From: an uncultured Balneolaceae bacterium
GTDB taxonomy: Bacteria > Bacteroidota > Rhodothermia > Balneolales > Balneolaceae
Assembly (NCBI GenBank): GCA_964007875.1
Contig: CAXGAH010000011.1
Location: 25,495 to 57,494 of the forward strand
Direction of reading: 5' to 3'
DNA: 32,000 nt
In this document: positions 2 to 17,406 of the stretch, in pieces
Position numbering within the stretch: the first letter of the stretch is position 1
Layout of the letters: each line of letters opens with the position of its first letter
Notes under the pieces: generated by a model
The model's database searches: none
What the model was told of the DNA's origin: nothing
The model's input: only the letters and a program-made list of their open reading frames with translations
Position numbers and translations under genes: made by a program

Positions 2-2689
2 GTAGTCGAGGCTGGCGAAACTACGAAAGTAAACCAAAGCTTGACCGAACAAATCTTTGAATCTGACCAAGAAGTAGTCGTCATCGGTGAGGCACCAATT
101 TTTGATGTTGAAAAATCTACAACCTCTTCTACTATATCGAAAAAAGATATTGAAGCAGCGCCTATTCAGAGGGTAGAAGATGCTGTTTCTTTGCAATCTG
201 GAGTGGTTAAAGATCCTACTGGACTTTATATAAAAGGGGGACGTGCCTATGAAACAGGCTATGTGGTTGATGGTGTTTCTGCACAGGATCCATTGGCAGG
301 AACGGGGTTTGGACTCGATTTAGGGTCTAATTCGTTCAGTAATATAGAGGTTATTACAGGTGGTGTTGGGGCAGAATATGGTGACGTTACCTCGGGTGTG
401 GTTTCGGTGCAAACTCAAAATGGAGGAGAACGTTACGAAGGTAACTTCTCTCATAAACGAGATAATTTGGGCAGCAATATATTGTCTAATCAGGCAAACT
501 TTTTCTCTGATATCTATGAATTAAGCATAGGTGGTCCGTCTATTTTAACCGAGCAATTATTACCTGCTTTAGGTATCGATTTGCCTGGTTCACTTACTTT
601 TTTTGCTACAGGACAAATTTCACTTACAGATGGCTATACCAAATTATCGGCGAATCAAATTCGCTCATCCATCGTAAATAGTGATTTTTGGTCCCCCAGA
701 CAAGGGAACCGATGGAATGGTATGTTTAAGATGACATATAACATCAAACCTGGTGTTCGATTACAGGGTGCTTATCAGCGCTCTTTAACCATTAATCAGA
801 ATACGCGAATGCTTCAGATTACAGGGGCCGATACGCAGATTCGACCTGGATTTCAATTCGCCTTTTCAAATGGGTTTTTAGATAATGCCAGTACCTATAC
901 CCATGATAGTAATTTGTCCTATCTAAAATATACTCAGACGCTCACGCAGTCGGCTTTTTATGAGGTTCAGGTGAGTCGATTATTTACCCGGCTCCGCGCC
1001 GATGCAAATGGTCGTAAATGGCGTCCAAATAATATTGACAGTGAGTTTGATCCAGAGAGTATTGTGATTTCCCCTGCAGAGGAGTTTGAAGGTGGCGAGG
1101 ACTTTACCTATGTATTAGCAGGTCCAGGCTATGTAAACAATGGGGGTATTTCCACTCTATGGCACGATCATTTTGCGGAGGAACTTACTGTAAAAAGTAG
1201 CCTAACTAAGTTTTTTGGTGATCGCACGAATCAAATAGTAGCGGGATTTGAATTTAAATTTAATGACTATCAATGGATTGATATCACACGTCCTTGGATT
1301 GGAGCACCCATATTTATTGATGAGAACAGGACTTCGGAAACGTTTAGGGTAGGGGAAACTTTCGATGCATGGCGAGTTAAGCCAAAACGGGGGGCTATTT
1401 TTGTAACCGATAAAATTAGGTACAATGGACTTATAGCTAATATTGGAGCTAGATTAGAGTATTGGGCTCCAGGAAGGTATGTGGACAATGCGGTAAATAA
1501 TGCACTTGATCCAAATACCCTCTCCACCATTCCTACTTTTGTAGCACAAGATTATCTAGACAGTAGTTCCGAAATTTTAGGTCTTCGCTATAAGTTTAGG
1601 TTTTTACCCAAGATTAATGTGTCATTTCCTGTTCGGGAAAATCAAGTGTTGTTCTTTAATTACGGACACTCGACTCGAATTCCTCATCCCTCTTATATAT
1701 ATGCAGGCCTAGATCCATTTTATCAAGATCAGTCTGATTTGCCTGATTTAGGGAACCCCAACTTAGATCCAGAAGTTGATATTTCTTATGAAATTGGGTT
1801 TAGAAATCAAATTACTTCGAACGATGCATTTAATGCTTCTGCCTTTTGGAGAGATAAATATGATTTTGTAACTACACAGTCGATCCGTGTACAAGACGTC
1901 GATGGGCGAAATGTAAGTAAAGCATTTAGGATTAATGGGGATTATGCCCGTTCTAGAGGGATAGAGTTATCCTATATTAAACGCTATAAGGATTTAATTA
2001 GAGGCCAACTTTCTTTTACCTATTCACGAGCAGAGGGGCTTAGTTCTACTAATGATGATAATTTAAATGCAATCAATGCAAACCAAAATATTGGAAGTAA
2101 TGTAGAGACTCCTTTAGCTTGGGATCGCCCATTTGATATAAAAGGTAATATCACTTTTACTCATGATAGGCCACAAGGTTTGTTTGGGTGGTCTGCTTTA
2201 AATGACTTTCAGATCTTTTTATCAGGGGTATGGCGATCCGGGACCCGTTATACTCCTATGGAATTCATCGGACTGCAGCGAAACCCAGTTACAGGTAGAG
2301 AAGACTGGCGCCCCAATTATGAGCGTGTAGTCAATCCTACTAAACGTTACAGTGAATTAGGCCCTGCTTGGTTCTACATGGATTTGAACATTCAAAAGTG
2401 GTTTGAAGTACAAGGTGTTCGTATTTCTACCTTTGCTGAAATTACTAATGTTTTGGACAACAGAAGTTCAGTCATTGTTAATCCAGTTACGGGTGAAGGT
2501 TATAAGAAATATCCACGAGATCCTGCGGCGTTGATGGCGCTTCGAAGTGATCGAAGTTATGATGTTCCAGGTAATGTTCGAGATCCAAGGTATTTAGATC
2601 CAACCGATAATAACTTACCCGCCTACGATAACCCAGCCAATTATATAGAACAACGTCATTTAATGGTAGGGGTATCGATTCGATTCTAA
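2..2689 (+). CDS. TonB-dependent outer-membrane receptor (5' end lies outside the window)
   Basis: The frame is open back to position 2 (VVEAGETTKVNQS... precedes the track start at 41), so the N-terminus is upstream of the window. Plug-like segments are present (DIEAAPIQRVEDAVSLQSGV, YIKGGRAYETGYVVDGV, IEVITGGVGAEYGDVTSGVVSV). They are followed by about 700 aa of beta-strand-like sequence ending in the aromatic terminus ...VGVSIRF typical of OM barrels. Confidence 0.85.
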   Translation, partial: VVEAGETTKVNQSLTEQIFESDQEVVVIGEAPIFDVEKSTTSSTISKKDIEAAPIQRVEDAVSLQSGVVKDPTGLYIKGGRAYETGYVVDGVSAQDPLAGTGFGLDLGSNSFSNIEVITGGVGAEYGDVTSGVVSVQTQNGGERYEGNFSHKRDNLGSNILSNQANFFSDIYELSIGGPSILTEQLLPALGIDLPGSLTFFATGQISLTDGYTKLSANQIRSSIVNSDFWSPRQGNRWNGMFKMTYNIKPGVRLQGAYQRSLTINQNTRMLQITGADTQIRPGFQFAFSNGFLDNASTYTHDSNLSYLKYTQTLTQSAFYEVQVSRLFTRLRADANGRKWRPNNIDSEFDPESIVISPAEEFEGGEDFTYVLAGPGYVNNGGISTLWHDHFAEELTVKSSLTKFFGDRTNQIVAGFEFKFNDYQWIDITRPWIGAPIFIDENRTSETFRVGETFDAWRVKPKRGAIFVTDKIRYNGLIANIGARLEYWAPGRYVDNAVNNALDPNTLSTIPTFVAQDYLDSSSEILGLRYKFRFLPKINVSFPVRENQVLFFNYGHSTRIPHPSYIYAGLDPFYQDQSDLPDLGNPNLDPEVDISYEIGFRNQITSNDAFNASAFWRDKYDFVTTQSIRVQDVDGRNVSKAFRINGDYARSRGIELSYIKRYKDLIRGQLSFTYSRAEGLSSTNDDNLNAINANQNIGSNVETPLAWDRPFDIKGNITFTHDRPQGLFGWSALNDFQIFLSGVWRSGTRYTPMEFIGLQRNPVTGREDWRPNYERVVNPTKRYSELGPAWFYMDLNIQKWFEVQGVRISTFAEITNVLDNRSSVIVNPVTGEGYKKYPRDPAALMALRSDRSYDVPGNVRDPRYLDPTDNNLPAYDNPANYIEQRHLMVGVSIRF

Positions 2690-2690
2690 C

Positions 2691-3746
2691 ATGAATTCAA
2701 TTGAAAAGCATATTAAATGTACTTTCTATAAGCGAATATTACCGAAAAGTATTTTAGTATACGTTGGGTTTATGGTATTGTTATTTTTATTCGTAGCTGG
2801 CTCTACCACTACGCTCAAAGCTCAAAAAAGCTTTGGGCAAGACCGAGCAGGCACGGAAGGTTTCCAGTTTACTAAAATCCCAGTCGATCCCCGTTCAGCG
2901 GCTATGGGGAACTCTAATATGGCCGATGCAATGGATGGCTCTAGTTTATATTGGAACCCTGCTTTATCTGCAGAAACGAATGGATCAGAATTTATGGTCA
3001 GTCATACGGAGTATGTAGCTGGTATTCAGCAAGATTATTTTAGTTATATCCAGCGTATCAATAGCTATGCAATCGGTGTTTCTGTTCAGTACTTAGGGTC
3101 TGGTGACATAATGGAAACTACGGAGTTTCAACCCTTTGGTACGGGCAGAATATTTTCAACCCACCATATGGCTGCTGGACTTTCAGTTGCTCAGAAGGTA
3201 ACGGATTTATTCAGCTATGGTCTTAGCTTTAAGTATCTATTAGAGAAAGTTGAAGAGATACAATACCAGAGTGGTGCCATAGATTTTGGTTTTGCTTATC
3301 GGGTAGGAGATACAGGACTACGTTTTGCAGTAGGGATTAATAACTTTGGTCTGGATGCGGCACCAGATGGTACTACTCAAAGAGAGTCCTTAGAGGGAGT
3401 TTTAGAATTAGAACCAGAAACTAATACATCTTTACCGACCCGTTTCCATATTGGCGCTGCATATGATTTGGTTGATAATCAGCAAAATAAAGTAACAATT
3501 ACGGCTCAAGTGACCAATCCATCTGATAATGCTGAGCAATTAAATGTAGGTGCTGAGTACAGTTTTATGGATCAATTTCATCTCAGAACTGGCTATGAAT
3601 TTGGACAATTAGAACGCAGAATGCCTAGTCTTGGTGGTGGCGTGTCTGTACCTTTTGTCGGTAGAATATTGAAAGCTGATTATGCCTACACACGTTTTGA
3701 GCGTTTGGGGCAAATTCATCGGATAGGTATGAGGGTAAGTTTATGA
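2691..3746 (+). CDS. PorV/PorQ-family outer-membrane protein (T9SS-associated family)
   Basis: It has a signal-like N-terminus ending ...TTTLKAQ. The segment AGTEGFQFTKIPVDPRSAAMGNSNMADAMDGSSLYWNPA matches my recollection of the conserved PorV/PorQ N-terminal motif (FL.I...AR..GMG.A..A..D.S....NPA). The rest has a beta-barrel-like alternating pattern. The ATG lies 1 nt after the receptor stop. Confidence 0.6.
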   Translation: MNSIEKHIKCTFYKRILPKSILVYVGFMVLLFLFVAGSTTTLKAQKSFGQDRAGTEGFQFTKIPVDPRSAAMGNSNMADAMDGSSLYWNPALSAETNGSEFMVSHTEYVAGIQQDYFSYIQRINSYAIGVSVQYLGSGDIMETTEFQPFGTGRIFSTHHMAAGLSVAQKVTDLFSYGLSFKYLLEKVEEIQYQSGAIDFGFAYRVGDTGLRFAVGINNFGLDAAPDGTTQRESLEGVLELEPETNTSLPTRFHIGAAYDLVDNQQNKVTITAQVTNPSDNAEQLNVGAEYSFMDQFHLRTGYEFGQLERRMPSLGGGVSVPFVGRILKADYAYTRFERLGQIHRIGMRVSL

Positions 3747-5053
3747 AATTAGCACTAATTCAACCTTTTATGAGAGTTTCAGCACCTTTGCTACTGCTCT
3801 TTTTGATGATGGTTCAAGGTGGATGTAGTGAACTATTTAACACCAAAGACAATACGGATACCGACGAAATATTTGACGAAGGTAAAATTGATCCCCGATT
3901 AGAAAATGTAGATGGTTATGCCCCAGTGTTACCATTTTGGGGTAGTTTTGACGCTCCTAATGATATACATGTAGGATTTGATGAATTTGTTTACGTAACC
4001 GATGCTAATGGGGTTCATTTACTAGATAGAGCTGATCTATCTCCACGAGTGACCATAGAATTAGAAGGAGCAGAAGCAGTAACTCAGGATAGACTCTTGA
4101 ACGTGTATGTAGCAGCTAGGATTGACACGGTTATTGAGAGTATTGATCCTACCATTACATGGAATCTTCCCGCTGTGTTTAAAATAAAGAATATGAACGG
4201 AGCGGGCCCTATAAAATTTGTAGATACTCTTATTTTTCCATTTGATGATGCGAGTTTAAGTACTTCTGCGGCTCAAAATTCACGCTTAAATCGTAGCAGT
4301 GGGACCAATTACGAGAAAGTGAAAATCACTGGTCTTAGCATACTGGCTGATAATACCTTGTATGTCACAAGAACTGGTCCATTCAATGAGACCACTCAAG
4401 TTGCGGCGCCAGATAATACGGTGTTAGAATTTCACCGAATAGTAGAAAACGGCATTAAAACAGATAAGATGCGTAACGTGCGTCAAATCAGGAGCCTTAG
4501 CCCAAACGTGCCTTCTTTAAGAAGTGCTATAGGCCTGAGTGGAATTGCTACCTTTGTAGCCCCACCACAGAGAGATACCTATACCGATAATCGAAGCTTT
4601 TTGATTACACAATCACAAGCCAACGTAGATATACCGTTTCGAGTTTTATGGATTGACGTAGTAGAGACGGTTGATGGGTTGGTTTATCAACAAAATTCAC
4701 AACTACTAGCCCAGGATACTTCACAAGCAAGTGGTTTTCTGTATGAACCTAATAAATTCATGCGCCCTCAAGACGTGGCATTTGGAGGAGATGATGATGC
4801 CTTTATTTTCGTAGTAGATAGTGAGACTCACCGATTATACCAGTTTCAGTCTAATGGTCAAGAAGGTGTCCCCCCACCAGCAGGAGCGGAAGATCAAACT
4901 CGTCAGATTATGGTGTCTTTTGGTGAGCTAGGGGCAGGTCCTAAAGAGTTTAATATGCCTAGTGGTGTGGCATATTTTCGCCGAGTAGTTTATGTAGCCG
5001 ACAAAGGAAATAATCGTATTGCTCGGTATAAATTAACCTCTGATTTTGAATAA
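3743..5053 (+). CDS. probable lipoprotein with NHL-type beta-propeller repeats
   Basis: The ATG overlaps the upstream TGA (ATGA), implying translational coupling. A hydrophobic leader ends ...MMVQGGC, with Cys directly after the signal. NHL-like repeats are visible (FVYVTDANGVHLLD, FIFVVDSETHRLYQFQ, VVYVADKGNNRIARYKL). Confidence 0.6.
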   Translation: MKLALIQPFMRVSAPLLLLFLMMVQGGCSELFNTKDNTDTDEIFDEGKIDPRLENVDGYAPVLPFWGSFDAPNDIHVGFDEFVYVTDANGVHLLDRADLSPRVTIELEGAEAVTQDRLLNVYVAARIDTVIESIDPTITWNLPAVFKIKNMNGAGPIKFVDTLIFPFDDASLSTSAAQNSRLNRSSGTNYEKVKITGLSILADNTLYVTRTGPFNETTQVAAPDNTVLEFHRIVENGIKTDKMRNVRQIRSLSPNVPSLRSAIGLSGIATFVAPPQRDTYTDNRSFLITQSQANVDIPFRVLWIDVVETVDGLVYQQNSQLLAQDTSQASGFLYEPNKFMRPQDVAFGGDDDAFIFVVDSETHRLYQFQSNGQEGVPPPAGAEDQTRQIMVSFGELGAGPKEFNMPSGVAYFRRVVYVADKGNNRIARYKLTSDFE

Positions 5054-7771: not shown

Positions 7772-9115
7772 TTACCCAGAGTTACGTTCTAAGAAATGAG
7801 TATTTCCCTGTACTCTATATAGACTTCTGGCGGTTTTAACGGTGCCTTTTCCATAGCGATTATTGATACGATCAATGGCTTGATAACGCTGAGTATATTC
7901 GGCTTCATCCCGAAAAAATAGATTCATTTGGCTGGTTTTATCCATGTCTTGAGTGCTTATCATTAGACTACGAATAGCCATTTTTCGCTGGCAAAAAGAG
8001 TCAATGAGCTCAGCTAATTCTCTCATGCACGCGTCATATACATATTTGGTTATGTGAGTAAAACTAGGGGTTACAAAGCGGAATCCTATGCTAGGATAGT
8101 CATTTTTGTCAAAACCAATATGCCCACCAAAACTACTCGAACGTATGCCGTAGGCCCGCATTCGGTAGCAGATCATTTCGATTCCAATGGCTAGTTCACC
8201 TTTGATAGCTTCTGGGTCGGTACTTCCTTCGGAGAAGGTATGTCCATAACTTACGCCCCATTTAGGTGAATATTCATGATTTTCCTCGAGTATTCGACCT
8301 TGATCCTGGCCGGTAATCGTTTCAAAAAGCATACGCCCAAAATGGGGTCCAAATAGACGCACAAAGGTGTTGGGTTCATTGTGTTTTACCACATCTCGTA
8401 TGCGCTCATATCCTTCTGCTAGGAGATGCTCATAACGCCTTCGCCCTACCCCCCATACTTCGTTGAGCAGTAATGGGTGTATACACATTCGTTCATCTTC
8501 ATTGCTTAGAATAAGAGAAATACCGCGGGGCTTATCCAAGCCACTGGCTAGCTTAGCATAGGTTTTGGATCGAGCAATTCCAATAGATCCATATAGTCCC
8601 GTGGTTTCCACGATATCGCGTTGCATTTGCTGAGCAAACGTTCGGATTTGAGGCTCTTCTTTGCCTAGAAGAAAACTTGCATCCATAAAATATTCATCCA
8701 TCGAGTAGCGCTCTATTTGGTGTGAGTAACGGTTCATAATATGATGTACCTGTGTTGATATAGCGGTATAACTAGCGTAGTCTACCTGAAGCATGCATAC
8801 GTATGGGCAGCGTTTATAAGCCTCATAGGCGCTCATTCCTGTTTTAATCCCCATCGAACGTGCTTCATAAGAAGAGGTGGCTACAATACCTTTAACGGTT
8901 CCATTTTCTTTTCTCCATCCACCTATAATGAGGGGAATTCCGTACATATTCTTTCGGAGTTGCTCTACTTGCGCGTAAAAACAGGCAAAGTCGAAATGCA
9001 AATATAAGCGGTCTTTTCGGTGTCGATGTTGGTGTTCTGGGTATACCGTATTGTAGAGAGTAATACGATGTACATCTTGTTCGGCTTGATACGAATATTC
9101 ATTTTTTTTTGGCAT
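7772..9115 (-). CDS. Y-family (DinB/UmuC-like) translesion DNA polymerase
   Basis: LYLHFDFACFYAQVEQL corresponds to the DMDAFYASVE motif. ATSSYEARSMGIKTGM corresponds to STANYEAR.FGV..GM. ERYSMDEYFMDAS corresponds to the SIDEAFLD motif, with the catalytic Asp and Asp-Glu retained. The C-terminus is little-finger-like (QMNLF....RYQAIDRINNRYGKGTV). GGAG sits 7 nt upstream of the ATG. Confidence 0.8.
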   Translation of the reverse strand: MPKKNEYSYQAEQDVHRITLYNTVYPEHQHRHRKDRLYLHFDFACFYAQVEQLRKNMYGIPLIIGGWRKENGTVKGIVATSSYEARSMGIKTGMSAYEAYKRCPYVCMLQVDYASYTAISTQVHHIMNRYSHQIERYSMDEYFMDASFLLGKEEPQIRTFAQQMQRDIVETTGLYGSIGIARSKTYAKLASGLDKPRGISLILSNEDERMCIHPLLLNEVWGVGRRRYEHLLAEGYERIRDVVKHNEPNTFVRLFGPHFGRMLFETITGQDQGRILEENHEYSPKWGVSYGHTFSEGSTDPEAIKGELAIGIEMICYRMRAYGIRSSSFGGHIGFDKNDYPSIGFRFVTPSFTHITKYVYDACMRELAELIDSFCQRKMAIRSLMISTQDMDKTSQMNLFFRDEAEYTQRYQAIDRINNRYGKGTVKTARSLYRVQGNTHFLERNSG

Positions 9116-9161
9116 AAATTACTCCGCTATTGATATGTACAATATATGTGTGTAATTTAAA

Positions 9162-9824
9162 ATGACCAAACAAATATTGGTCATGAACAACTTTCCCCTT
9201 GTAGAAATGCTCGCTTTTTTCCCCCGCTATTCAGAGGTGTACACTTTTGATTGGAGGCTGCGCTATGTGCGGCAGGTACGTCATATTAGATCCTGTCACA
9301 CTAAGACGCTAGGAGGGGTGCAATATTCATTTTTTAGTATTATGACTCAGCAGGGCGAAGCTATGGATGTACGCTTTAATCACGATGAATTACTTTGGGA
9401 CATTGTAGCGCTGCCTGGATCCGAGTTAGCTATACATAGCGAAGATGGTTCGCATTTTGTTATTGACCGAATATTGGTGCACCAACAGCGGCATAAGCAT
9501 CAGCCTTCTCTGGCTCATCGTATGCGCCCTATCCGTTTTGAGTGGCTTCCTTACGCCCGATGCGCGAGGAAGAGCCCTATTGAACATGCCAAAGTAGACC
9601 GCATGCATCCGTATCGTTTTTTGAAAGGAAAAAATAGCTCCTATCAGGTTCATAGGATAGAAACGCGTCATCTAGAAGATGTTATGGTCACCCGGCATTT
9701 TCATTATGTTGTTGAGGATACCGAGCGGAGGTTCTATCATGTAGTATACATATTGGATCAGGGAGATTGGCGGTTTATACAAGAAGTAGATGAACAGTTC
9801 TTATTTCACCGGTCTACTCCTTGA
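9162..9824 (+). CDS. hypothetical protein (His/Arg-rich, no family recognised)
   Basis: A 220-codon stop-free ORF in an AT-leaning genome is very unlikely by chance. It has no recognisable motif, signal peptide, TM segment or Shine-Dalgarno. It diverges from the Y-family polymerase across only 46 bp. Confidence 0.5.
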   Translation: MTKQILVMNNFPLVEMLAFFPRYSEVYTFDWRLRYVRQVRHIRSCHTKTLGGVQYSFFSIMTQQGEAMDVRFNHDELLWDIVALPGSELAIHSEDGSHFVIDRILVHQQRHKHQPSLAHRMRPIRFEWLPYARCARKSPIEHAKVDRMHPYRFLKGKNSSYQVHRIETRHLEDVMVTRHFHYVVEDTERRFYHVVYILDQGDWRFIQEVDEQFLFHRSTP

Positions 9825-9844
9825 AAGCGGGCCAAATAGTATGA

Positions 9845-10561
9845 TTAGAATAACCGTAATTTGGCTTCGATAAGATGAGGCCCGTTGTTACGTACGTTCC
9901 CAACAGCAGCAGGAACGATATGGCTTTTAAGTCCATCATCGGGGTAGGGGTCCAATAGGTAGTTCAAATCTTCTATACCCAATTGTGGATTTAACCAATG
10001 AGTCCATTCAGATGAATGCAAAAAAATAGGCATACGGTCATGAATGTCTTGCATGGTTGCATTGGGTCGAGTGGTCAAAATAGAAAACGAGTAAAGAGAG
10101 TCCAGTGGGCTTAAGGGAGAATAAAAGCCTGCTGCAAAAAGAATAGAGTTATTGACCGCTTGTATATAATGAGGAGTTTTATTCCCTTTTGTGCCTGACC
10201 ATTCAAAAAATCCGTTCATTGGGACAAGGCATCGCTGCGTAGATACGGATCGCCACATGAGTTTTTCGACTATCTGTTCGGATCGAGTGTTAATGGGTAG
10301 TAGGGGGCGGCTTCTTGCCTTCGGTTTCCACCCCATAAATCCCCAATACATGGGTGTCCGTATTAATTGGGGAGTATCGGTGGTGGCTTGAAAGATGACC
10401 GGTACGATATGGCTGGGCGCTATATTATAAGAAGGTAGTTTATGAGCGATTTTCTGTAGATTCTGTTCTCCAAAAATTCCATCTATTTCGTTTGGCAGCG
10501 AAGATCCGATCAGTGTATCTATGGTACTAAGGTCACTAAAAAGAGTGTATCGTCCACACAT
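9845..10561 (-). CDS. SOS-response-associated peptidase (SRAP/YedK family, abasic-site DNA-protein crosslinking)
   Basis: The N-terminus is MCGRY..., with the invariant Cys2 nucleophile, which requires the ATG at 10559-10561 rather than the TTG one codon upstream used by the track. Further family-like segments are NIAPS, VPMNGFFEW and HDRMPIFL. Confidence 0.85.
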   Translation of the reverse strand: MCGRYTLFSDLSTIDTLIGSSLPNEIDGIFGEQNLQKIAHKLPSYNIAPSHIVPVIFQATTDTPQLIRTPMYWGFMGWKPKARSRPLLPINTRSEQIVEKLMWRSVSTQRCLVPMNGFFEWSGTKGNKTPHYIQAVNNSILFAAGFYSPLSPLDSLYSFSILTTRPNATMQDIHDRMPIFLHSSEWTHWLNPQLGIEDLNYLLDPYPDDGLKSHIVPAAVGNVRNNGPHLIEAKLRLF

Positions 10562-10578
10562 CAAATAGAAAACGCCGT

Positions 10579-11241
10579 TTAATAAAAAATGCGAAGTACA
10601 ATCCGTCTATTTTTTGCACGGTTTTCTATAATATCTTGACCAAATTCGTCAATATGGGGTGCAGTAGGTAAGGGTTGTGTGTCTGCATATCCTGATGCTT
10701 TCAGATTGGAGGCTTGGTATCCTTGACTAACAAGAAATTTAACTACCTCAGAGGCTCTTGCAACAGAAAGTTCCCAGTTAGAAGGAAACCTTAACGTATT
10801 AATAGGAACATTATCAGTATGCCCTTCGATATCTACTTTAAAATTGTAAAATGATAATCCATTTAGAGCATCAGATACTTTACTAATAATACTCTCACCT
10901 GAGGGTAATAATTCGGCACCACCTGAGATATAAAGTGAACTACTATTAAATGTCATCACAATTTCTTTGGTAGTCAAATCAATATTAACTAAGCCTTGGT
11001 TACGTTCGGTAGTTAAAACAGAATCTAGATCAGCTTTAATTTCTGCCAACGGAGTTTTCTGTATTTCTGTACCCGTTACCTCTGAACGCATTCCTTCTTT
11101 CATTTGATCCCAAAGAGCTTGATCAGGGGTACTTGAAGCAATTAGAATAGCAAAAAAAGCAAGCAGTAATGTAATCATATCACTGTAGGTAAGAAGATAT
11201 TCAAGATCTTCTTCTGCTTCTTCCATTTCATTAGCGCTCAT
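10579..11241 (-). CDS. motB: MotB/PomB-like stator subunit (OmpA-like peptidoglycan-binding C-terminus)
   Basis: LLTYSDMITLLLAFFAIL is a single TM carrying the conserved channel Asp, as in the MotB TYADLMTLL motif. The C-terminal OmpA-like module reads IEGHTDNVPI...FPSNWELSVARASEVVKFL...ASGYADTQP...NRAKNRRIVL. Confidence 0.8.
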   Translation of the reverse strand: MSANEMEEAEEDLEYLLTYSDMITLLLAFFAILIASSTPDQALWDQMKEGMRSEVTGTEIQKTPLAEIKADLDSVLTTERNQGLVNIDLTTKEIVMTFNSSSLYISGGAELLPSGESIISKVSDALNGLSFYNFKVDIEGHTDNVPINTLRFPSNWELSVARASEVVKFLVSQGYQASNLKASGYADTQPLPTAPHIDEFGQDIIENRAKNRRIVLRIFY

Positions 11242-11277
11242 AACAAACTTATTTAAATTATTGTACTATCGAAATAG

Positions 11278-12099
11278 TTAGTCATCCTTATCTTTACTTT
11301 TGCTGCCTTTCTTTTTGAAGTCTCGCTGTAAAAAAGTACTAAGTTTATCCTGAATAAAGAATGCAGTTTTCTTTTCATTAATTAAAATGATTCCTTCGAG
11401 CATGAAAGTCTCTCTAAAACGATTTATAGAAGCTGAATTTTTAATTTTCTCAGCAACAGGATAAAAAATGAATCGAGAGAGTACAATTCCATATAATGTA
11501 GTCATTAAAGCAGCTGCCAGTCCAGGCCCCATGGCAGTAGGGTCGTCCAAATTACTAAGCATATCAATTAATCCAAATAATGTACCGAACATACCAAATG
11601 CAGGTGCCGCTCCACCCATCGCGCGAAGGACATCAACAACGACCATTTGCCTAAAAAAGCCTTCTTGGATATGGTTAGTTCCGAATTGACGAATGTCGTC
11701 ACTTGAATAATTGGTACTTAAAAGAGAAAAAAGATATCCTTCTAAATATCCACCTCGTTCTTCTTCTAATCTATCTAATGCATTAACTCTATCTTTTCTG
11801 ATTTCATCATTCCATTCAACGATTGCTTCAAAATCTTTTTGCAGCGATTTTTTGTTCGCACCTGCTTGACTAAAAAAGTATCTCACTCCCGCTAAAGCAC
11901 TATTTACATACCTTGATTGAAACGTAATATAAGAGGCCATAAGAACTCCACCTACTACAATAACCATACTAGGTATATTCATAAATTGGGTGTTAATACC
12001 TACAGTAAATGTTGTGGTTTTAATTGTCTCCAATACACCAAAAATTATCATTGCTAAACTAATGACTGTACCGATCATTGAGCCAATTGAAAATTTCAT
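11278..12099 (-). CDS. motA: MotA/PomA-like stator subunit (four-TM MotA/TolQ/ExbB proton-channel family)
   Basis: Two N-terminal TMs are followed by a cytoplasmic loop of about 95 aa, then TM3 (AAPAFGMFGTLFGLIDML, with the conserved Pro) and TM4 (LAAALMTTLYGIVLSRFIFYPV, with YG...P). The four-TM layout is MotA-type, not TolQ/ExbB-type (three TMs). GAGGA lies about 10 nt upstream of the ATG. Confidence 0.8.
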   Translation of the reverse strand: MKFSIGSMIGTVISLAMIIFGVLETIKTTTFTVGINTQFMNIPSMVIVVGGVLMASYITFQSRYVNSALAGVRYFFSQAGANKKSLQKDFEAIVEWNDEIRKDRVNALDRLEEERGGYLEGYLFSLLSTNYSSDDIRQFGTNHIQEGFFRQMVVVDVLRAMGGAAPAFGMFGTLFGLIDMLSNLDDPTAMGPGLAAALMTTLYGIVLSRFIFYPVAEKIKNSASINRFRETFMLEGIILINEKKTAFFIQDKLSTFLQRDFKKKGSKSKDKDD

Positions 12100-12102
12100 T
12101 TG

Positions 12103-12750
12103 TTACTGTCCTCTGCGTATTTCTTGTATTAAAGTTTCTAATTCTGGAATGCTAGGAATGGGAATATTTGGATCCATTTGGACTGCTCGATTCCAATTGG
12201 CACGTGCTGCTGTGATATTTTCTAACATAAAAAAGACCGTTCCTTTTAAGGCATAAGCGTCTGCAGTATCTTGAATTTCAAGGGTCTTGTCAATAAATTC
12301 TAAAGACTCTCGGTATTCTCCAAGATAAAATAAATCTTGAGCTTTCCGAAAGTTAGTAAGTAGAGATTGTATATCTCTGGCTCTGTTTTGTACTAGACTG
12401 GAGTCGATTACTATAATGGAATCTTTATCAACTGGTCGTATGCCCCGTAAATCCAAATAAAATTGTTCTTTAGATGGATCTAGTTTAATCTGGATATTTG
12501 AACTCTCATTTAAATAATTGACGGTAATTACTTCATTTAGAGGACTAGCATCGGTTGTGTTTACCGTATTGCGTTGAGTGTTGGTATTTACCGTACGCCG
12601 ACTAGTATCTTCCAATTGTGAAGAGGTATTACTTTGAACCGGCTCAGTGGTCGCGCAGCTCAATGTAAATGTAATTATGAAAGCTACCAAAAATGCTGTG
12701 AGCGTAGTTTTAGTTATAAGTACAATATGTTTAAAATCGTAAGACTGCAT
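12103..12750 (-). CDS. probable lipoprotein with C-terminal TPR-like repeats
   Basis: A hydrophobic leader ends ...ITFTLSCATTEP (lipobox-like LSC). A low-complexity T/N/S-rich linker follows. The C-terminal half has TPR-like helices (AQDLFYLGEYRESLEFIDKTLEIQDTADAYALKGTVFFMLENITAARANWNRAVQMDPN). Its start overlaps the upstream gene by 20 nt. Confidence 0.6.
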   Translation of the reverse strand: MQSYDFKHIVLITKTTLTAFLVAFIITFTLSCATTEPVQSNTSSQLEDTSRRTVNTNTQRNTVNTTDASPLNEVITVNYLNESSNIQIKLDPSKEQFYLDLRGIRPVDKDSIIVIDSSLVQNRARDIQSLLTNFRKAQDLFYLGEYRESLEFIDKTLEIQDTADAYALKGTVFFMLENITAARANWNRAVQMDPNIPIPSIPELETLIQEIRRGQ

Positions 12751-13894
12751 GGAATCCGATTCCAGTTTGTTTATAAGTTATACGGTCTTTGTTTGGTAAT
12801 TTGATAGATTCACCAGCGAGCATTAGATTCCCAAATACCGAAAGCCCAATATTTTTACTCAGATTAAATTGCACTCCAGGTTCTAACATAAACATTTCAC
12901 CATCCTTGTTACCAAGAGGAAATTGCATATTTAGTTTGGAGTAGAATACTACTCGATATTCATCTATATCAGGATTCTTTTCTGATAAGGCTTGGTAATA
13001 AACTAAACCCAAATCAAAAAGTGATATATCGAATAAAGTTATATCTCTATTTCGAGATCTAATAATATGATAACCTGCTGTAAAACCAATATAAGAACTA
13101 TTCTCTAAATCTAAAGGCTGTCTGTAAGAAAACGTTAAACTGAAATCTGTGAGAGCTTGTCGTAATAATGTATCGGCTTGATGTGAAAATGTAGTTGATG
13201 TGGAATCAGTGCCTGCGCCGGTACTATCATTACTTGATGTTGTAGTCGAATATTGATTCCTATACCAGCTATCGGAGGATCTAGTAGTGATTCCAAAACT
13301 GACTAATTTTTGTGAACCTTGATTCAATGTAGGTAAAACTATAGGTGGATTTGATATAAATGAGTTACTCCATACTACTTCACGTGATTGAGGGTTCATA
13401 ACACGAATTCCAATGACAAGTCCCTCTGGTTCTCTCCTTTGCAAACTTAATTCTACTAAACCTTGGACACCATATTTATAAGAAATTTCTTCTAACATAT
13501 CAGGTGATACATCTGCTAAGGATCTTCCTTGCATATTTAAAATCTGTAGTGTTGAATCGTTTCCTATAATCTTGAGTTTGTCATTTGGTTCTAGTTCTGG
13601 TGGTGATAATACAGTAAGTCCAGCATATTGACGCATTGAATATTCGATCTCAGCCCTTAGATATTCTACTTCTTCATTTGTAAACCTTAGAGCGGAATAA
13701 TTTATTTTATAAATCGCTATACGACGAACATTAACAGGAAAATCAGCTAAATTTGGATGTAACTGTTCTTGGATTTTTTCAATCATATATGGGTCACCTT
13801 GCTGATGAGTGAAAGTCTGAGCAGAGACATGAACTGTATTTAGTAACCCTCCAAAAGTTAGAACCAATAGTAGATTGAATGATCTTTTCATCAT
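12731..13894 (-). CDS. signal-peptide outer-membrane protein: N-terminal soluble domain plus C-terminal beta-barrel
   Basis: The leader MMKRSFNLLLVLTFGGLLNTVHVSAQ looks cleavable. The C-terminal half has alternating beta-strand patterns (FSLTFSYRQPL, YIGFTAGYHII, FDLGLVYYQAL, VVFYSKLNMQF, MFMLEPGVQFNL, IGLSVFGNLML) and ends GIGFHAVLRF with a terminal Phe, the OM insertion signature. The ATG directly abuts the stop of the upstream gene (TAGATGATG). Confidence 0.6.
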   Translation of the reverse strand: MMKRSFNLLLVLTFGGLLNTVHVSAQTFTHQQGDPYMIEKIQEQLHPNLADFPVNVRRIAIYKINYSALRFTNEEVEYLRAEIEYSMRQYAGLTVLSPPELEPNDKLKIIGNDSTLQILNMQGRSLADVSPDMLEEISYKYGVQGLVELSLQRREPEGLVIGIRVMNPQSREVVWSNSFISNPPIVLPTLNQGSQKLVSFGITTRSSDSWYRNQYSTTTSSNDSTGAGTDSTSTTFSHQADTLLRQALTDFSLTFSYRQPLDLENSSYIGFTAGYHIIRSRNRDITLFDISLFDLGLVYYQALSEKNPDIDEYRVVFYSKLNMQFPLGNKDGEMFMLEPGVQFNLSKNIGLSVFGNLMLAGESIKLPNKDRITYKQTGIGFHAVLRF

Positions 13895-15823
13895 CTATGC
13901 TTCTGTTTTCATTTTACGACGTACTGCGTAAAGAATGGTTTTTTGAGCGTCCTCTACTTCTGAATTAGTAGCTTCAGAAGGCATTTCTATTTCACTTAAA
14001 ATAAGCTGCTGATCTCGTTTAGTACGAGACTTAAGTACTTTTTCTCTGACAGCAGCTGGTGCAGTGCGTAAAGCTAAAATAAGTGTTTCAGAAGGTATTT
14101 CGTCAAGTGCTGATTTTATTAATTCAATTTTTACTTTTGGTAAATCATCAAATCCGATAAAATATTTTTTGATTTTTTTCGCCAATTCTAAATCTTGTTC
14201 TGCAATTGAAGCAACATATGCATCTTGTTCAGAAAGTGGCATAGTTTCAATTGTATTTAATATAGTTTCTACACCATCTGCTGCAACATATTTCATGTCA
14301 GAGATTGCTAAAGCTTTAGTAGAAAAATGAGAGGCAACTTTTTTATAGACGGAAATAGGTATATTATTGATTTTTCCCATTTTAAGGAGAACAGATATAC
14401 GTTTGTTTTCATCCATTTTTTGTAAAACAATACCAGCTCTCTCGCCAGCAACTTGTGCTAATAAAATAGAAATCATTTCATTTGACTCGTCTTTCATTAG
14501 ATGTAGAATTTGTTGATCTGTTAATTGATCAACAAATTCAAACATACTAGTTTCTTTATCTTCTGACTCTTTTGGGGTTTTGTATGTTGTAATACTGCTG
14601 CGCAGGTTCTCTGTCTCATTTATTCTTTCTTCGAGAGTAAGGCTACCAGAATTATCAATGCCATAATTAATTATTTCATAAATATTGGAACTCATATAAG
14701 GCTTTAAAATATTAATGAGTTTCTCATCTACACTAATAAGACTTTTTACCACTTTAGTTGTACCCTGTTCTTCATCATTCGCAATCCATTCACTAAACAT
14801 GCTTGAGATAATTTTTGGCTTACTAATGCACATATTTGCAATGAATGTTTTATCTCCTTCAAATTTCGCCATTTCTTTAACAGTAGGACCTTTGCGCGAC
14901 TGTTCTTCATTTATTTCTGTGGTAATCGATTGAGGTATGTTTAAAATAGTTTTAGATTGTTCTCTATTTTGTATAGCTTCGTCATCCTTTTTAGTTTTCG
15001 GCTTTCTTGAGACAGCAAATATTAAAGCCGCAATAAATAATATTGCTAATGCGAGAATAATGTATAATAGGTGCTCTGGGTTGTTCCAGTCAATTCCTAA
15101 AAATAGTTTCTGTTCTCTTTCTTCTACTAGGGTTTGGAAAACAGTATCAGGTAAAACAGGTGAAATATTATTAACTATATTTTCTTCTTGGTCTTCATTA
15201 GGTTGTTCTTGTGTATTATTGACGATATTAGTACTGTCTAGCAATGTTGCAGGACTAGGTGCGTAAGGCTTTTTAATGTCTTGTTCGAAAGCACGACTAT
15301 TTCGGGGAAATACTTTTTTACTGACCGTTACAATATCACCCCGAAATTCATCTGCATTGGCAATTAACGAGGCGGCTTCTTCTACAAAATCTACATCTTC
15401 GTCACTGTATGAAGTATCTACTAGTACCTTAATGTTAAGTCTAGTGAGTTGAAAACGTGCATCAAATCCAGACGCCTTGATACTGTCCTGCCCAGTAGGC
15501 CTGTTTGATTGTAGATTAGGTGGTATAAAAGGGAGCCCAGGGAGATTTTCAATTTTAATGTCTTCTTGTGGTTGAACGACTTGGTAGCCTTTAGGGACTA
15601 AAATGCGCTCTAATGTGGCCTTAACATCTACAATAAATGTTCCCTCCCGGTAGTAATCTGAGAGTGCGTTATCTAAAACAACTTCATAATATCGTTCGTA
15701 TTTAGCTGCTTCTTCCTGTACATCTGCAGACGAATTCTGTCCGGGCACTATTTGCCCGGTTACGATCATACTCTGAAGCGCAATAATGCTTGTAAGAGCA
15801 AGAATTTTTAGGTTTCCTGCCAT
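13895..15823 (-). CDS. membrane protein with FliF-like topology fused to a full-length FliG-like cytoplasmic module
   Basis: aa 1-25 are hydrophobic (a signal or TM1). aa 26-250 are periplasmic with alpha/beta segments (FIVDVKATLERILVP, RLNIKVLVDTSY, DIVTVSKKVF). The TM is at aa 251-271 (LLYIILALAILFIAALIFAV), followed by SRKPKTKKDD (positive-inside). aa 315-642, about the length of FliG, align by eye to E. coli FliG. The middle domain (ESNEMISILLAQVAGERAGIVLQKMDENKRISVLLKM) aligns with [37 protein letters not shown]. The C-domain (YFIGFDDLPKVKIELIKSALDEIPSETLILALRTAPAAVREKVLKSRTKRDQQ...SEVEDAQKTILYAVRR) aligns with MFVFENLVDVDDRSIQRLLQEVDSESLLIALKGAEPPLREKFLRNMSQRAAD...SQVENEQKAILLIVRR. GGAGG lies 7-8 nt upstream of the ATG. 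Confidence 0.7.
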   Translation of the reverse strand: MAGNLKILALTSIIALQSMIVTGQIVPGQNSSADVQEEAAKYERYYEVVLDNALSDYYREGTFIVDVKATLERILVPKGYQVVQPQEDIKIENLPGLPFIPPNLQSNRPTGQDSIKASGFDARFQLTRLNIKVLVDTSYSDEDVDFVEEAASLIANADEFRGDIVTVSKKVFPRNSRAFEQDIKKPYAPSPATLLDSTNIVNNTQEQPNEDQEENIVNNISPVLPDTVFQTLVEEREQKLFLGIDWNNPEHLLYIILALAILFIAALIFAVSRKPKTKKDDEAIQNREQSKTILNIPQSITTEINEEQSRKGPTVKEMAKFEGDKTFIANMCISKPKIISSMFSEWIANDEEQGTTKVVKSLISVDEKLINILKPYMSSNIYEIINYGIDNSGSLTLEERINETENLRSSITTYKTPKESEDKETSMFEFVDQLTDQQILHLMKDESNEMISILLAQVAGERAGIVLQKMDENKRISVLLKMGKINNIPISVYKKVASHFSTKALAISDMKYVAADGVETILNTIETMPLSEQDAYVASIAEQDLELAKKIKKYFIGFDDLPKVKIELIKSALDEIPSETLILALRTAPAAVREKVLKSRTKRDQQLILSEIEMPSEATNSEVEDAQKTILYAVRRKMKTEA

Positions 15824-15909
15824 AATTTAACCTCCGCAGAAGGTATTTTTATTTTAGCTTAAACGTAAATGATATTAACCACCTCGTAAAGTATGGGAAA
15901 TTTTTTGTG

Positions 15910-15918
15910 TTTTCCACA
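15910..15918 (+). promoter_or_regulatory. DnaA-box-like 9-mer TTTTCCACA (fits TTWTNCACA)
   Basis: This is a direct sequence match in the AT-rich region upstream of the motor operon. It has the same orientation as the box at 16030. Function is untested. Confidence 0.25.
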
Positions 15919-16029
15919 CTTTTACTTAAAATAAGTAGAATATTAATCTAATGATAATAATATTGATTTTTATTGGTAATTAGATGTTTAGGATAGAATA
16001 AGTTTCTTATAACATGATTTTGTATAAAC

Positions 16030-16038
16030 TTATCCACA
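16030..16038 (+). promoter_or_regulatory. perfect consensus DnaA box TTATCCACA
   Basis: It is an exact match to the E. coli-type DnaA box consensus, 120 bp from the related 9-mer at 15910. One perfect box in 32 kb is not very improbable by chance, so function is uncertain. Confidence 0.3.
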
Positions 16039-16084
16039 CTGCGAACTACGTAAAAACACTTAGTTTGTACGTATGCTGAATTGC

Positions 16085-16519
16085 TCATAACTTGGAAGAG
16101 AAGGCTAGCGCATAGATTTTCATTTGCTTAACCATAGAAGCCAAGCCATTAGCTCTGGTAGGCGAGAGATGCTCATTCATTCCAATCTCAGTGATGAAGG
16201 TAGGCTCTGTTTCCAAAATAGCGGTAGGGGTTTGATAGCTATACAAGCGTACCATTAATGCTACAAGTCCTTTAGTGATAGCAGCGTCACTGTCTGCCTG
16301 GAATACAATCCGCTCATCACTGAGTTCAGCATGCAGCCAAACTTGGCTTTGACAGCCTTTAACAATATTGCTATCTATTTTTTTTGAACTATCGAGTGGA
16401 GGAAGTTTAGATCCGAGCTTAATGATGTGCTTGTAACGTTCGGTCCAATCCTCGAAAAGTCTAAATTCTCTGGCAATTCTATTTTGTATGTCTTCAATAC
16501 CTATTTTGGGCTGCGACAT
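16085..16519 (-). CDS. sufE: cysteine desulfuration protein SufE
   Basis: The length is about 140 aa. The SufE/CsdE active-site context KGCQSQVWLH (persulfide-accepting Cys) is present, and the overall similarity to SufE is family-like. Confidence 0.85.
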   Translation of the reverse strand: MSQPKIGIEDIQNRIAREFRLFEDWTERYKHIIKLGSKLPPLDSSKKIDSNIVKGCQSQVWLHAELSDERIVFQADSDAAITKGLVALMVRLYSYQTPTAILETEPTFITEIGMNEHLSPTRANGLASMVKQMKIYALAFSSKL

Positions 16520-16527
16520 GTCGACAC

Positions 16528-17406
16528 TTAAATTTCTTTTAACTCTAGCTTACCGACTGACTTTACAGTTGAAATTTTATTGCTGGTATCGTCTTTTACG
16601 GGACTGAATGACTGATAAATTGTTTGGTACTCGTCAGTACCGGGTACTTTATATCGAAATAACTCTGAGACAGTTATACCTTCAAATGCACTGCTTAGAG
16701 CTTGCTTTATCATTGCAACATCATGTGGATGTATAACACTCTCCAATCCTTTTTCAAAAACATCATCTGAGCCGAATCCAGTGACTTCTTCGAAAGCTTC
16801 ATTGATGTATTTGCAATTGAACCCAGATTCGTCTTTCGAAAATTTGAGAATGAATTCTTCTCTTTGTTTTAATAAGGAACCAAAATCGGTATTGAAAATA
16901 GCCTTAGCACTTTCTTTTTTCTCTGTAACATCTCGTTGATATGACACCCAATGAGTAACCTCTCCCTGTGCGTTCATTAAGGGATGAATATCCCACTGGT
17001 TAATAAACTCTGAGCCATCTTTGCGATAGTTAATGGTATGACCAAAGAATGCTTGCCCTTCAATTAATCGCCTTTTGAGACGTTCCAAAATAACTCGATC
17101 AGTTTTCGCACCTTGAAGGATTCGTGGTGTCTTGCCAAATACTTCTTGTTTTGTATATCCAGTCATTCTAGTAAAACCGTCATTCACATAGACAATTCTT
17201 GGTCCAGGTTTTTCCAAACTAAGTTCAGTGATTATGATAGAATCATAATCATTTCGAATCGCGCTTTCAAGCAAGTCTAACTGATGTTTTAGTGTAGCAA
17301 TTTGATCTGCTTGTGACTGAAAAGCACCTTCAAGCCTTACTTGGGCATCGGCATCTTTGGCAAAATTCTTGATGTCGTATAATTCAAATAGTTTATTGTG
17401 CTTCAT
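16528..17406 (-). CDS. tandem PAS-domain sensor protein; first PAS is LOV-like but lacks the photoactive Cys
   Basis: An N-terminal coiled-coil-like segment is followed by PRIVYVNDGFTRMTGYTKQEVFGKTPRILQGAKTD...INYRKDGSEFINQWDIHPL...VSYQRDVTEKK (LOV-type PAS). A second PAS follows (YINEAFEEVTGFGSDDVFEKGLESVIHPHDV...). There is no output domain. Confidence 0.75.
   Translation of the reverse strand: MKHNKLFELYDIKNFAKDADAQVRLEGAFQSQADQIATLKHQLDLLESAIRNDYDSIIITELSLEKPGPRIVYVNDGFTRMTGYTKQEVFGKTPRILQGAKTDRVILERLKRRLIEGQAFFGHTINYRKDGSEFINQWDIHPLMNAQGEVTHWVSYQRDVTEKKESAKAIFNTDFGSLLKQREEFILKFSKDESGFNCKYINEAFEEVTGFGSDDVFEKGLESVIHPHDVAMIKQALSSAFEGITVSELFRYKVPGTDEYQTIYQSFSPVKDDTSNKISTVKSVGKLELKEI

Follow-up and report, generated by a model that had tools for sequence, protein, structure and literature searches.

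A five-gene cassette combining a FliF–FliG fusion protein, a flagellar-type stator and predicted outer-membrane partners in Balneolaceae and Fibrobacterota

What can a flagellar rotor and its stator be doing next to two non-flagellar envelope proteins? The question is raised by five adjacent genes of an uncultured Balneolaceae bacterium (GenBank assembly GCA_964007875.1, contig CAXGAH010000011.1, positions 25,495 to 57,494 of the forward strand). We analyzed this whole stretch of 32,000 nucleotides, called the window below, in which positions are counted from the first letter. FliG, together with its torque contact with MotA, is regarded as specific to flagella. Also, a recent survey has classed stators of the PomAB/MotAB type as a flagellum-specific clade (PMC12505986). 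The five genes, hereafter the cassette, place a flagellar rotor–stator module in an architecture that is both new and non-flagellar: a protein made of FliF and FliG parts and a MotA/MotB pair are encoded together with a secreted barrel protein and a lipoprotein bearing tetratricopeptide repeats (TPR). According to the list of open reading frames (ORFs), the genes are arranged as follows:

13895-15823, minus strand: rotor-type fusion gene, 642 aa
12731-13894, minus strand: secreted barrel-protein gene, 387 aa
12103-12750, minus strand: TPR lipoprotein gene, 215 aa
11278-12099, minus strand: MotA/PomA-type stator A gene, 273 aa
10579-11241, minus strand: MotB/PomB-type stator B gene, 220 aa

A sequence-only reading of the window had already described five packed minus-strand genes at 10579-15823, and its coordinates and spacings agree exactly with ours: from the 642-aa gene onward, the junctions measure 0, -20 (an overlap), 3 and 36 nt. 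The five proteins were scanned with Pfam and NCBIfam profiles, as were the other window ORFs of at least 120 aa and the ORF that runs into the end of the window. None of these other ORFs encodes a flagellar export, rod, hook, switch or filament protein, as the same reading had stated for the 32 kb; they are housekeeping or unrelated genes.

Five products: a FliF–FliG fusion, a stator and their envelope partners

The features of the 642-aa protein, with the methods that define them, are listed here:

15308-15727, minus strand: FliF RBM3/β-collar-like periplasmic domain, residues about 33-172 (AlphaFold2 (AF2), Foldseek, profiles)
15008-15079, minus strand: transmembrane (TM) helix, residues about 249-272 (hydropathy and AF2)
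13901-14881, minus strand: FliG-like cytoplasmic module with M and C domains and, by fold, an N domain, residues about 315-641 (Foldseek, phmmer, Pfam)

Two FliG domains were found by Pfam above the cut-offs, FliG_C (PF01706; E 2e-19, 70.3 bits against a cut-off of 23.3) and FliG_M (PF14841; E 2e-8, 34.6 bits against 25). The match to FliG_N stayed below its cut-off (21 against 25 bits) and lay at residues 450-523, which is not the expected position of an N domain. The NCBIfam model TIGR00207 (fliG) was matched at E 3e-25 over model positions 108-319, its 89.5 bits missing the equivalog cut-off of 226.7, and NF004260 was matched with 25 bits, missing a cut-off of 550. Searches with phmmer retrieved FliG chains of the PDB at up to E 3e-17, residues 332-637 being aligned with residues 19-319 of Aquifex FliG. 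In the AF2 model, which was built on an alignment of 41 diverse homologues (mean predicted local distance difference test, pLDDT, 81), residues 315-641 are all-helical. This part was matched by Foldseek to full-length FliG (8wiw, E 5e-10), with 307-318 aligned columns on FliG chains of 310-331 residues. The FliG-like domains proposed from the letters were therefore recovered both above Pfam cut-offs, for FliG_M and FliG_C, and as a full-length FliG by structure. An MgtE_N-like reading of the cytoplasmic domain was ruled out (E 0.43, against 2e-19 for FliG_C).

The hydropathy profile showed an N-terminal hydrophobic segment at residues 5-26 and a strong TM peak of 3.11. The periplasmic region contains a single folded domain in the AF2 model (residues 33-172), of α-β-β-α-β order, with two strands of about 20 residues and pLDDT mostly above 90, and carrying the conserved motifs LPGLP and RGD..FP. 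Foldseek matched it to the RBM3/S-ring part of FliF (8z5v, 6scn, 8ftf and 6sd1) at E 2e-4 to 7e-4, with probability 1.0 and a target TM-score of about 0.5. A profile built from 28 family members had FliF as its top PDB matches (E 0.002 and 0.004), the RGD...F motif being aligned, and PF08345 (YscJ_FliF_C) was matched by 21 of the 28 members, with a best E of 1.3e-4 and all scores below the 23.8-bit cut-off. The FliF-like part, also proposed earlier, thus has no significant single-sequence Pfam match and was borne out by AF2 with Foldseek, by the profile and by these 21 members. PF01514 (YscJ_FliF), which covers RBM1 and RBM2 of FliF, gave no Pfam match in the 642-aa protein. Since the Foldseek, phmmer and profile results and the absence of YscJ_FliF agree, the protein is shown to be a natural fusion of a FliF cut down to its distal ring-building domain, a linker, a TM helix and a FliG that is complete by structure.

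The linker precedes the TM helix and spans residues 185-242 (nt about 15098-15271), that is, about 58 periplasmic residues predicted to be disordered (pLDDT below 50). It is of low complexity, acidic and rich in Asn and Gln. On the AF2 model, such a linker could hold a periplasmic ring well away from the inner membrane. Unlike canonical FliG, a soluble cytoplasmic protein of about 330 aa, the 642-aa protein is a membrane protein. Several features set it apart from members of the FliG and FliF families: scores below the equivalog cut-offs, loss of the EHPQR motif, absence of RBM1/RBM2 and an architecture that is not that of a soluble protein. Public annotations of the family read "hypothetical protein", "FliG C-terminal domain-containing protein" or "flagellar motor switch protein FliG".

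Both stator proteins have the identities first assigned to them. The 273-aa protein contains MotA_ExbB (Pfam, E 7e-19) and matches NCBIfam MotP/PomA models over its full length at up to E 1e-38, against E 1e-3 or weaker for tolQ/exbB; the tolQ model itself was matched at E 9e-4 with 19 bits, for a cut-off of 221. In the PDB its matches were Vibrio PomA (E 3e-28), Aquifex MotA (E 2e-26) and TolQ (E 7e-3). It has a large cytoplasmic domain between TM2 and TM3 and no long tail of the ZorA kind. The 220-aa protein contains MotB_plug (PF13677, E 3e-11) and OmpA (PF00691, E 2e-13), both above the Pfam cut-offs, and matches NCBIfam MotD/MotS/MotB models at E 1e-39 to 1e-28 and flagellar MotB, PomB and MotS in the PDB. 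Its TM residue Asp21 is invariant (41/41 Balneolaceae-group and 11/11 Fibrobacterota sequences). All NCBIfam equivalog cut-offs were missed by the stator proteins, for example with 132 against 394 bits and 137 against 283 bits. A plug and an OmpA-like domain are hallmarks of the flagellar ("FIT") stator clade (PMC12505986), and by sequence the pair is of the flagellar PomAB type and not of the ExbBD/TolQR or Zorya type.

Two further observations concern the stator genes. T173 and T201 of MotA are conserved in all sequences, and residue 200 (nt about 11500-11502) is Thr in 41/41 members of the marine or saline Balneolaceae group and Ala in 9/11 Fibrobacterota. T173, T200 and T201 may correspond to the Na+-site threonines of PomA, and the Thr/Ala split at position 200 may reflect Na+ versus H+ coupling. 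For the coupling ion, H+, as assumed in the sequence-only reading, and Na+ are both candidates. Also, synonymous divergence (dS) is mosaic inside the cassette: when loci L003 and L004 are compared with the window, motB and motA show values of 0.10-0.58 and the fusion gene 0.82-1.15 for the same genome pairs, which suggests recent recombination of stator genes among marine Balneola populations.

The torque interface was examined residue by residue. Through an alignment with Salmonella FliG, the E. coli FliG residues R281, D289, K264, D288 and R297 were mapped to R603, E611, R586, S610 and T619, respectively, and columns were counted over 57 fusion-family sequences (42 of the Balneolaceae group and 15 of Fibrobacterota). 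R603, the R281 equivalent, is invariant in both clades (42/42 and 15/15). E611, the D289 equivalent, is present in 41/42 Balneolaceae-group sequences; its place is taken by Gly in Fibrobacterota, which have E613 in 14/15 cases. At the position of K264, R, K, Y and L all occur. On the stator side, R88, K89, E96 and E99 of PomA align with R101, K102, D109 and E112 of MotA. The charged loop of the Balneolaceae proteins holds K/R101 (41/41), R104 (40/41), E112 (39/41) and E114 (37/41), while K98, K/R99 and E/D109 are kept instead in Fibrobacterota. Complementary charges on rotor and stator thus seem to be retained at positions that move between the clades, and the proposed pairing is read from imperfect alignments. 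The FliM-binding EHPQ of FliG_M (the first four residues of EHPQR) is replaced in the fusion family by E-S-(D/N)-E, where only the Glu (E446) is conserved; this loss fits with the absence of a switch complex.

The 387-aa protein matched no Pfam family, and two parts of it are defined by AF2 and Foldseek:

13355-13783, minus strand: TolB-N/LpoB-like periplasmic domain, residues about 38-180
12734-13309, minus strand: predicted outer-membrane β-barrel, residues about 196-387

In the AF2 model (pLDDT 70.6), a signal peptide precedes an α/β domain (38-180), and the C-terminal residues 196-385 form a β-sheet region. The first domain was matched by Foldseek to the N domain of TolB (E 2e-5), to the C domain of LpoB (TM-score 0.63), to GNA1162 and, weakly, to FlgT (E 0.08); the C-terminal part was matched to the outer-membrane barrels OmpT, FapF and TamA. 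The last residue is aromatic (F/Y) in 56/56 homologues, as in outer-membrane β-barrel proteins, and homologues occur solely in cassette contexts. The 215-aa protein has a hydrophobic N-terminus ending in ..FTLSC, with lipobox Cys32, followed by an S/T/N-rich linker and TPR repeats at residues 128-200 (TPR_1 and TPR_2 above the Pfam cut-offs). Cys32 is kept by every Balneolaceae-group homologue (42/42), and the Fibrobacterota locus L052 likewise has a lipobox. The outer-membrane barrel and the TPR lipoprotein of the earlier description are thus both supported, the first by structure comparison and the second by profiles and the conserved lipobox. Together, the five products are predicted to span the cytoplasmic face, the inner membrane, the peptidoglycan, the periplasm and the outer membrane.

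Distribution, selection and the upstream region

An exhaustive HMMER search for the fusion family returned 2531 cluster representatives at E <= 1e-3, of which 101 reached E <= 1e-30. The best 150 matches are mostly proteins of 580-750 aa with the same architecture. Two matches of canonical length (331 aa; P0226 and P0241) were considered as true FliG proteins and rejected: they lie on contigs of 1.3-1.4 kb, one of them clusters with a 589-aa protein, and both are probably fragments of the family.

A locus scan of GTDB species genomes gave 57 loci; 10 closer sequences were used for it, and the distribution outside Balneolaceae and Fibrobacterota is probably under-sampled. Balneolaceae account for about 40 of the loci, among which are Gracilimonas tropica DSM 19535, Balneola sp. 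EhC07 and numerous complete chromosomes of metagenome-assembled genomes (MAGs). About 15 come from Fibrobacterota MAGs, at 27-31% identity, and one from a MAG labelled Chitinophagales. Two distant metagenomic contigs, L059 and L062, carry the full cassette at about 24% identity, the distant members showing 24-28% overall. By tblastn with the five window proteins, the gene order was found to be shared by essentially every related locus with enough flank, so the five-gene synteny holds in Balneolaceae, in Fibrobacterota and in the distant metagenomic members. The only genes common to the loci of both clades are those of the cassette, and in about 50 genomes of the two phyla each of the five reading frames is intact.

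When compared with four relatives, each of the five genes had a ratio of non-synonymous to synonymous divergence (dN/dS) of 0.04-0.31. All five are under purifying selection and, because of these values, are not relics. Given the recurring order and the dN/dS ratios, the arrangement is far beyond chance.

The region in front of the 642-aa gene is also conserved:

15824-16084, minus strand: conserved non-coding region upstream of the 642-aa gene (alignment of relatives)

Over its 260 nt, mean column identity is 82% across nine relatives, for which coding dS is 0.8-1.7 and near saturation. Two TGTGGA(T/A)AA boxes, TGTGGATAAG and TGTGGAAAAC, are about 120 nt apart. A CCTTCTGCGGRGG element is able to pair across a Shine–Dalgarno-like GGAGG; the invariant ACCTTCTGCGGRGGTTAAAT, beside the start codon, could fold over this GGAGG sequence as a hairpin of 5 bp. 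Positions 15824-16084 are probably the promoter and 5' leader of the cassette. Rfam at permissive settings gave no meaningful match in this region. A scan of positions 9800-16600 for sigma-70 consensus promoters and terminators returned counts not above shuffled expectation and gives no evidence on transcript structure.

Possible function and comparison with known systems

With the flagellar motor core the cassette shares a homologous FliG (M and C domains by profile, the N domain by fold), the RBM3/collar of FliF and a PomAB-type stator with plug, Asp and OmpA-like anchor, as well as the torque-helix Arg equivalent to R281 and charged residues of the MotA loop. It differs in that FliF and FliG are one polypeptide, RBM1 and RBM2 are absent and a disordered linker of about 58 residues stands before the TM helix. 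It also has no linked genes for FliM/N, export apparatus, rod, hook, LP-ring or filament, and it has a dedicated β-barrel protein and TPR lipoprotein. Although its parts are flagellar, we do not regard the system as a flagellum.

Among natural proteins, the closest precedent is the FliF–FliG fusion of Chlamydiaceae (Bergeron 2016, PMC4768692). This protein too joins a shortened FliF to FliG-like sequence, has a topology with two hydrophobic segments and occurs in bacteria that are not thought to be flagellated. However, it is only about 330 aa long, with an RBM2-like domain, one further RBM and an FliG_M-like part alone; it was discussed as a possible injectisome partner, and it has no reported partners of the motAB, barrel or TPR kind (PMC4768692). 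The cassette fusions, in contrast, are about 600-750 aa long; they keep RBM3 and, by structure, all of FliG with its torque-generating C domain, and motAB is linked to them. Engineered FliF–FliG fusions from Salmonella (cited in PMC4768692) and Vibrio (PDB 8z4d/8z4g) show that a covalent fusion can form a ring and support rotation, and the Vibrio fusion chain aligns with both the FliG part and the S-ring part of the 642-aa protein. Unlike the cassette fusion, these are laboratory constructs with full-length FliF, working within complete flagella. General remarks on rotor proteins in non-motile species have also been published (PMC12199754).

An inner-membrane ion-driven unit with periplasmic or outer-membrane partners is also found in ExbBD-TonB, TolQRA-TolB-Pal, GldLM/PorLM of the type IX secretion system (T9SS), AglRQS-Glt and ZorAB. 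The A and B subunits of the cassette are nevertheless of flagellar type (TolQ/ExbB similarity at E 1e-3 to 7e-3, no ZorA match), and their driven partner would be a FliG-bearing ring-type protein rather than an extended periplasmic protein of the TonB, TolA, GldM or GltG type. With Tol-Pal, the 387-aa protein shares only a TolB-N-like fold, having a β-barrel where TolB has a propeller. The H/T-ring of Vibrio (FlgT, MotX/MotY) also places an accessory periplasmic TolB-N-like protein beside a PomAB-type stator. Here the similarity is weak and at the level of fold. FlgT lacks a β-barrel and acts around an LP-ring, which the cassette does not encode. No description of the cassette came up in full-text literature searches aimed at it, in agreement with the sequence-only reading, which did not recognize the FliG-containing architecture as a described system.

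We consider it probable that the cassette is a self-contained, filament-less derivative of the flagellar motor in which rotor and stator are coupled to the outer membrane. The homology, architecture, co-inheritance and selection described above are observed; ring formation, rotation, contacts and output we infer. The fusion protein would oligomerize as an inner-membrane ring, like FliF/FliG. Ion flow through a peptidoglycan-anchored MotA5B2 unit would turn the MotA pentamer against the torque helix of FliG_C and so drive the ring, probably in one direction only, as there is no FliM/FliN switch. The periplasmic collar would engage the TPR lipoprotein and also the barrel protein, through the TolB-N-like domain of the latter, and mechanical work would then be passed to the outer membrane or the cell surface. 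Surface movement, outer-membrane remodelling or tethering, and export are the candidate outputs. A more tentative proposal, to which we would give somewhat less than an even chance, is that such cassettes define a distinct, so far undescribed class of envelope-spanning rotary machines in bacteria of the Fibrobacteres–Chlorobi–Bacteroidetes (FCB) group, one cultured species described as non-motile included. A fusion ring spun by flagellar-type stators would then drive, by way of the TPR lipoprotein and the barrel protein, an outer-membrane or surface process such as a new kind of surface motion, export or remodelling of the envelope.

Several findings weigh against a filament-less rotary motor. 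The disordered linker of about 58 residues before the TM helix would make a poor torque shaft, and the periplasmic ring may only be tethered. All NCBIfam equivalog cut-offs are missed, so the proteins are divergent paralogues whose biochemistry may differ. At the interface, the equivalents of D288 and R297 of E. coli FliG (S610 and T619) are not conserved, and the charged positions of MotA shift between clades. The model of the 387-aa protein is of only moderate confidence (pLDDT 70.6). In loci L048 and L061, no motAB genes adjoin the fusion, barrel and TPR genes. Finally, Balneola vulgaris has been described as motile and flagellated (cited in PMC5167729).

The last point bears on a more conventional explanation, in which the cassette would belong to an ordinary or atypical flagellum of its host, with fliF and fliG fused and the other flagellar genes elsewhere in the genome. 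RBM1 and RBM2 of FliF seat the export gate, and the fusion has neither of them, nor any PF01514 match. Nor is the FliM-binding EHPQR motif kept, scores fall far short of every NCBIfam flagellar equivalog cut-off, and the linkage to two non-flagellar envelope proteins is invariable. No flagellar gene was found in any inspected flank, that is, within ±8-10 kb of L001, L059, L060, L061 and L062. Balneolaceae isolates are mostly non-motile. One species with an intact cassette, G. tropica (DSM 19535), is listed as non-motile (PMC5167729) and is among the taxa without KEGG flagellar-assembly genes (PMC9909488). We therefore hold a host flagellum to be improbable, while noting that all homology points to flagellar proteins, that engineered FliF–FliG fusions are functional in Salmonella (cited in PMC4768692) and that, beside the flagellated B. 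vulgaris (PMC5167729), the Balneolaceae genus Aliifodinibius has species with many flagellar genes (PMC9909488). The KEGG-based comparison lists the genus Balneola without flagellar-assembly genes (PMC9909488), at odds with PMC5167729 on B. vulgaris; this species is not among the 57 loci of the GTDB scan. A flagellated ancestor and some flagellated carriers of the cassette are possible. Incomplete flagellar gene sets in Balneolaceae have been interpreted as gradual loss (PMC9909488) and other bacteria are known to retain flagellar remnants without function (discussed in PMC12199754), from which the cassette could be seen as a decaying, functionless remnant of an ancestral flagellar gene set. 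We give this almost no credence, and it is effectively refuted by the present evidence: the five ORFs are intact in about 50 genomes of two phyla with dN/dS of 0.04-0.31, the upstream region is conserved, key catalytic and structural residues are invariant, and the flagellar parts have been fused and partnered with dedicated non-flagellar genes.

The main rival accepts a functional cassette and denies the rotation. In this scheme, a non-rotary system would energize or tether the envelope in the manner of Tol-Pal or Ton, and the FliG-like domain would merely dock or regulate a MotAB-type unit, with no turning ring. The TolB-N/LpoB-like domain of the barrel protein, the presence of a lipoprotein and of a peptidoglycan-binding OmpA domain, the loss of the switch-complex motif and the three-gene variants without adjacent motAB all agree with such a system, and the long flexible linker suits tethering better than torque transmission. 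On the other hand, 5:2 motors are thought to rotate in all the systems studied. The stator is of the PomAB type with a large torque-interface domain and not of the TolQR/ExbBD type, the torque-helix Arg of FliG is invariant across phyla, and it is to the ring-building RBM3/collar of FliF, specifically, that the periplasmic domain corresponds. We judge a non-rotary system unlikely. Another system with a MotAB-like 5:2 motor, the anti-phage defence of the Zorya kind, is so improbable that it can be set aside. PADLOC matched MotB to ZorB models (E 6e-18), which is expected from the shared MotB homology, but found no ZorA match for MotA and no family for the other four proteins. MotA has 273 aa and lacks the long ZorA tail, no nuclease or helicase genes like ZorC or ZorD are present, and the cassette lies among housekeeping genes, stably syntenic in Balneolaceae, and not in a variable defence island. 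A Zorya identity was rejected, the PADLOC result being generic ZorB similarity only.

Taken as a filament-less motor derivative, the cassette offers a conserved and directly testable case of a rotor and stator wired to outer-membrane components. If it rotates, it would add a new ion-driven envelope machine to the flagellum, Ton, Tol, T9SS/Gld, Agl-Glt and Zorya. A rotating cassette would also provide a naturally minimal rotor, free of switch complex and export gate, for structural and biophysical studies of torque, and would bear on scenarios for the evolutionary assembly or dismantling of the flagellar motor. Were the reading true, this would be the first natural flagellar rotor–stator pair working without export apparatus, rod or filament, and a living model of a minimal or proto-flagellar motor. 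In addition, where Balneolaceae, Fibrobacterota and similar groups receive KEGG-style calls of an "incomplete flagellar pathway", the cause may be a different machine rather than decay.

Variant loci and neighbouring genes

Some loci depart from the common arrangement. What lies downstream of the three-gene set differs: a MarR regulator and a TonB-dependent receptor in the MAG labelled Chitinophagales (L048, 8854-12643), small ORFs of no assigned identity in a related metagenomic contig (L061, 3930-7650). In these two loci the fusion, barrel and TPR genes may form a core, the stator being elsewhere or absent. A further variant, L060 (GCA_036681025.1, 1420-11781), combines a 754-aa FliG_C protein with motA and motB. 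Upstream of these are six co-directional genes without a Pfam family (179, 202, 156, 191, 281 and 966 aa) and a Por_Secre_tail cargo gene, and the locus may represent a second architecture of FliG-coupled stators. In 10 Fibrobacterota loci, a divergent gene for a 569-aa MORN-repeat protein lies just upstream of the cassette (for example L044, 7100-8800, minus strand). It was not found in Balneolaceae, and it may be either lineage-specific synteny or an accessory component.

Directly downstream of the cassette in the window, an SRAP/YedK-type SOS-response peptidase gene (9845-10564, minus strand) adjoins motB. It is followed by a 220-aa ORF without a Pfam family (9162-9824, plus strand) and by a DinB/IMS-family polymerase gene (7772-9115, minus strand). 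Positions 7772-10564 are a small DNA-damage-tolerance cluster. The remaining window genes encode a TonB-dependent receptor, a PorV-like protein, FolP, CdaA, the DinB-family polymerase, the SRAP peptidase, SufE, a PAS protein, MeaB, methylmalonyl-CoA mutase, SMC, Frr, PyrH, Tsf, RpsB, RplM, a T9SS-tail protein and a probable aconitase. The window contains no tRNAs, and Rfam matched nothing meaningful over its whole length. Finally, a T9SS appears to be present in the host, because the window holds tandem genes for a TonB-dependent receptor, a PorV-like outer-membrane protein and an NHL-repeat protein (41-5053), as well as a small protein bearing a T9SS C-terminal sorting domain (29809-30216).

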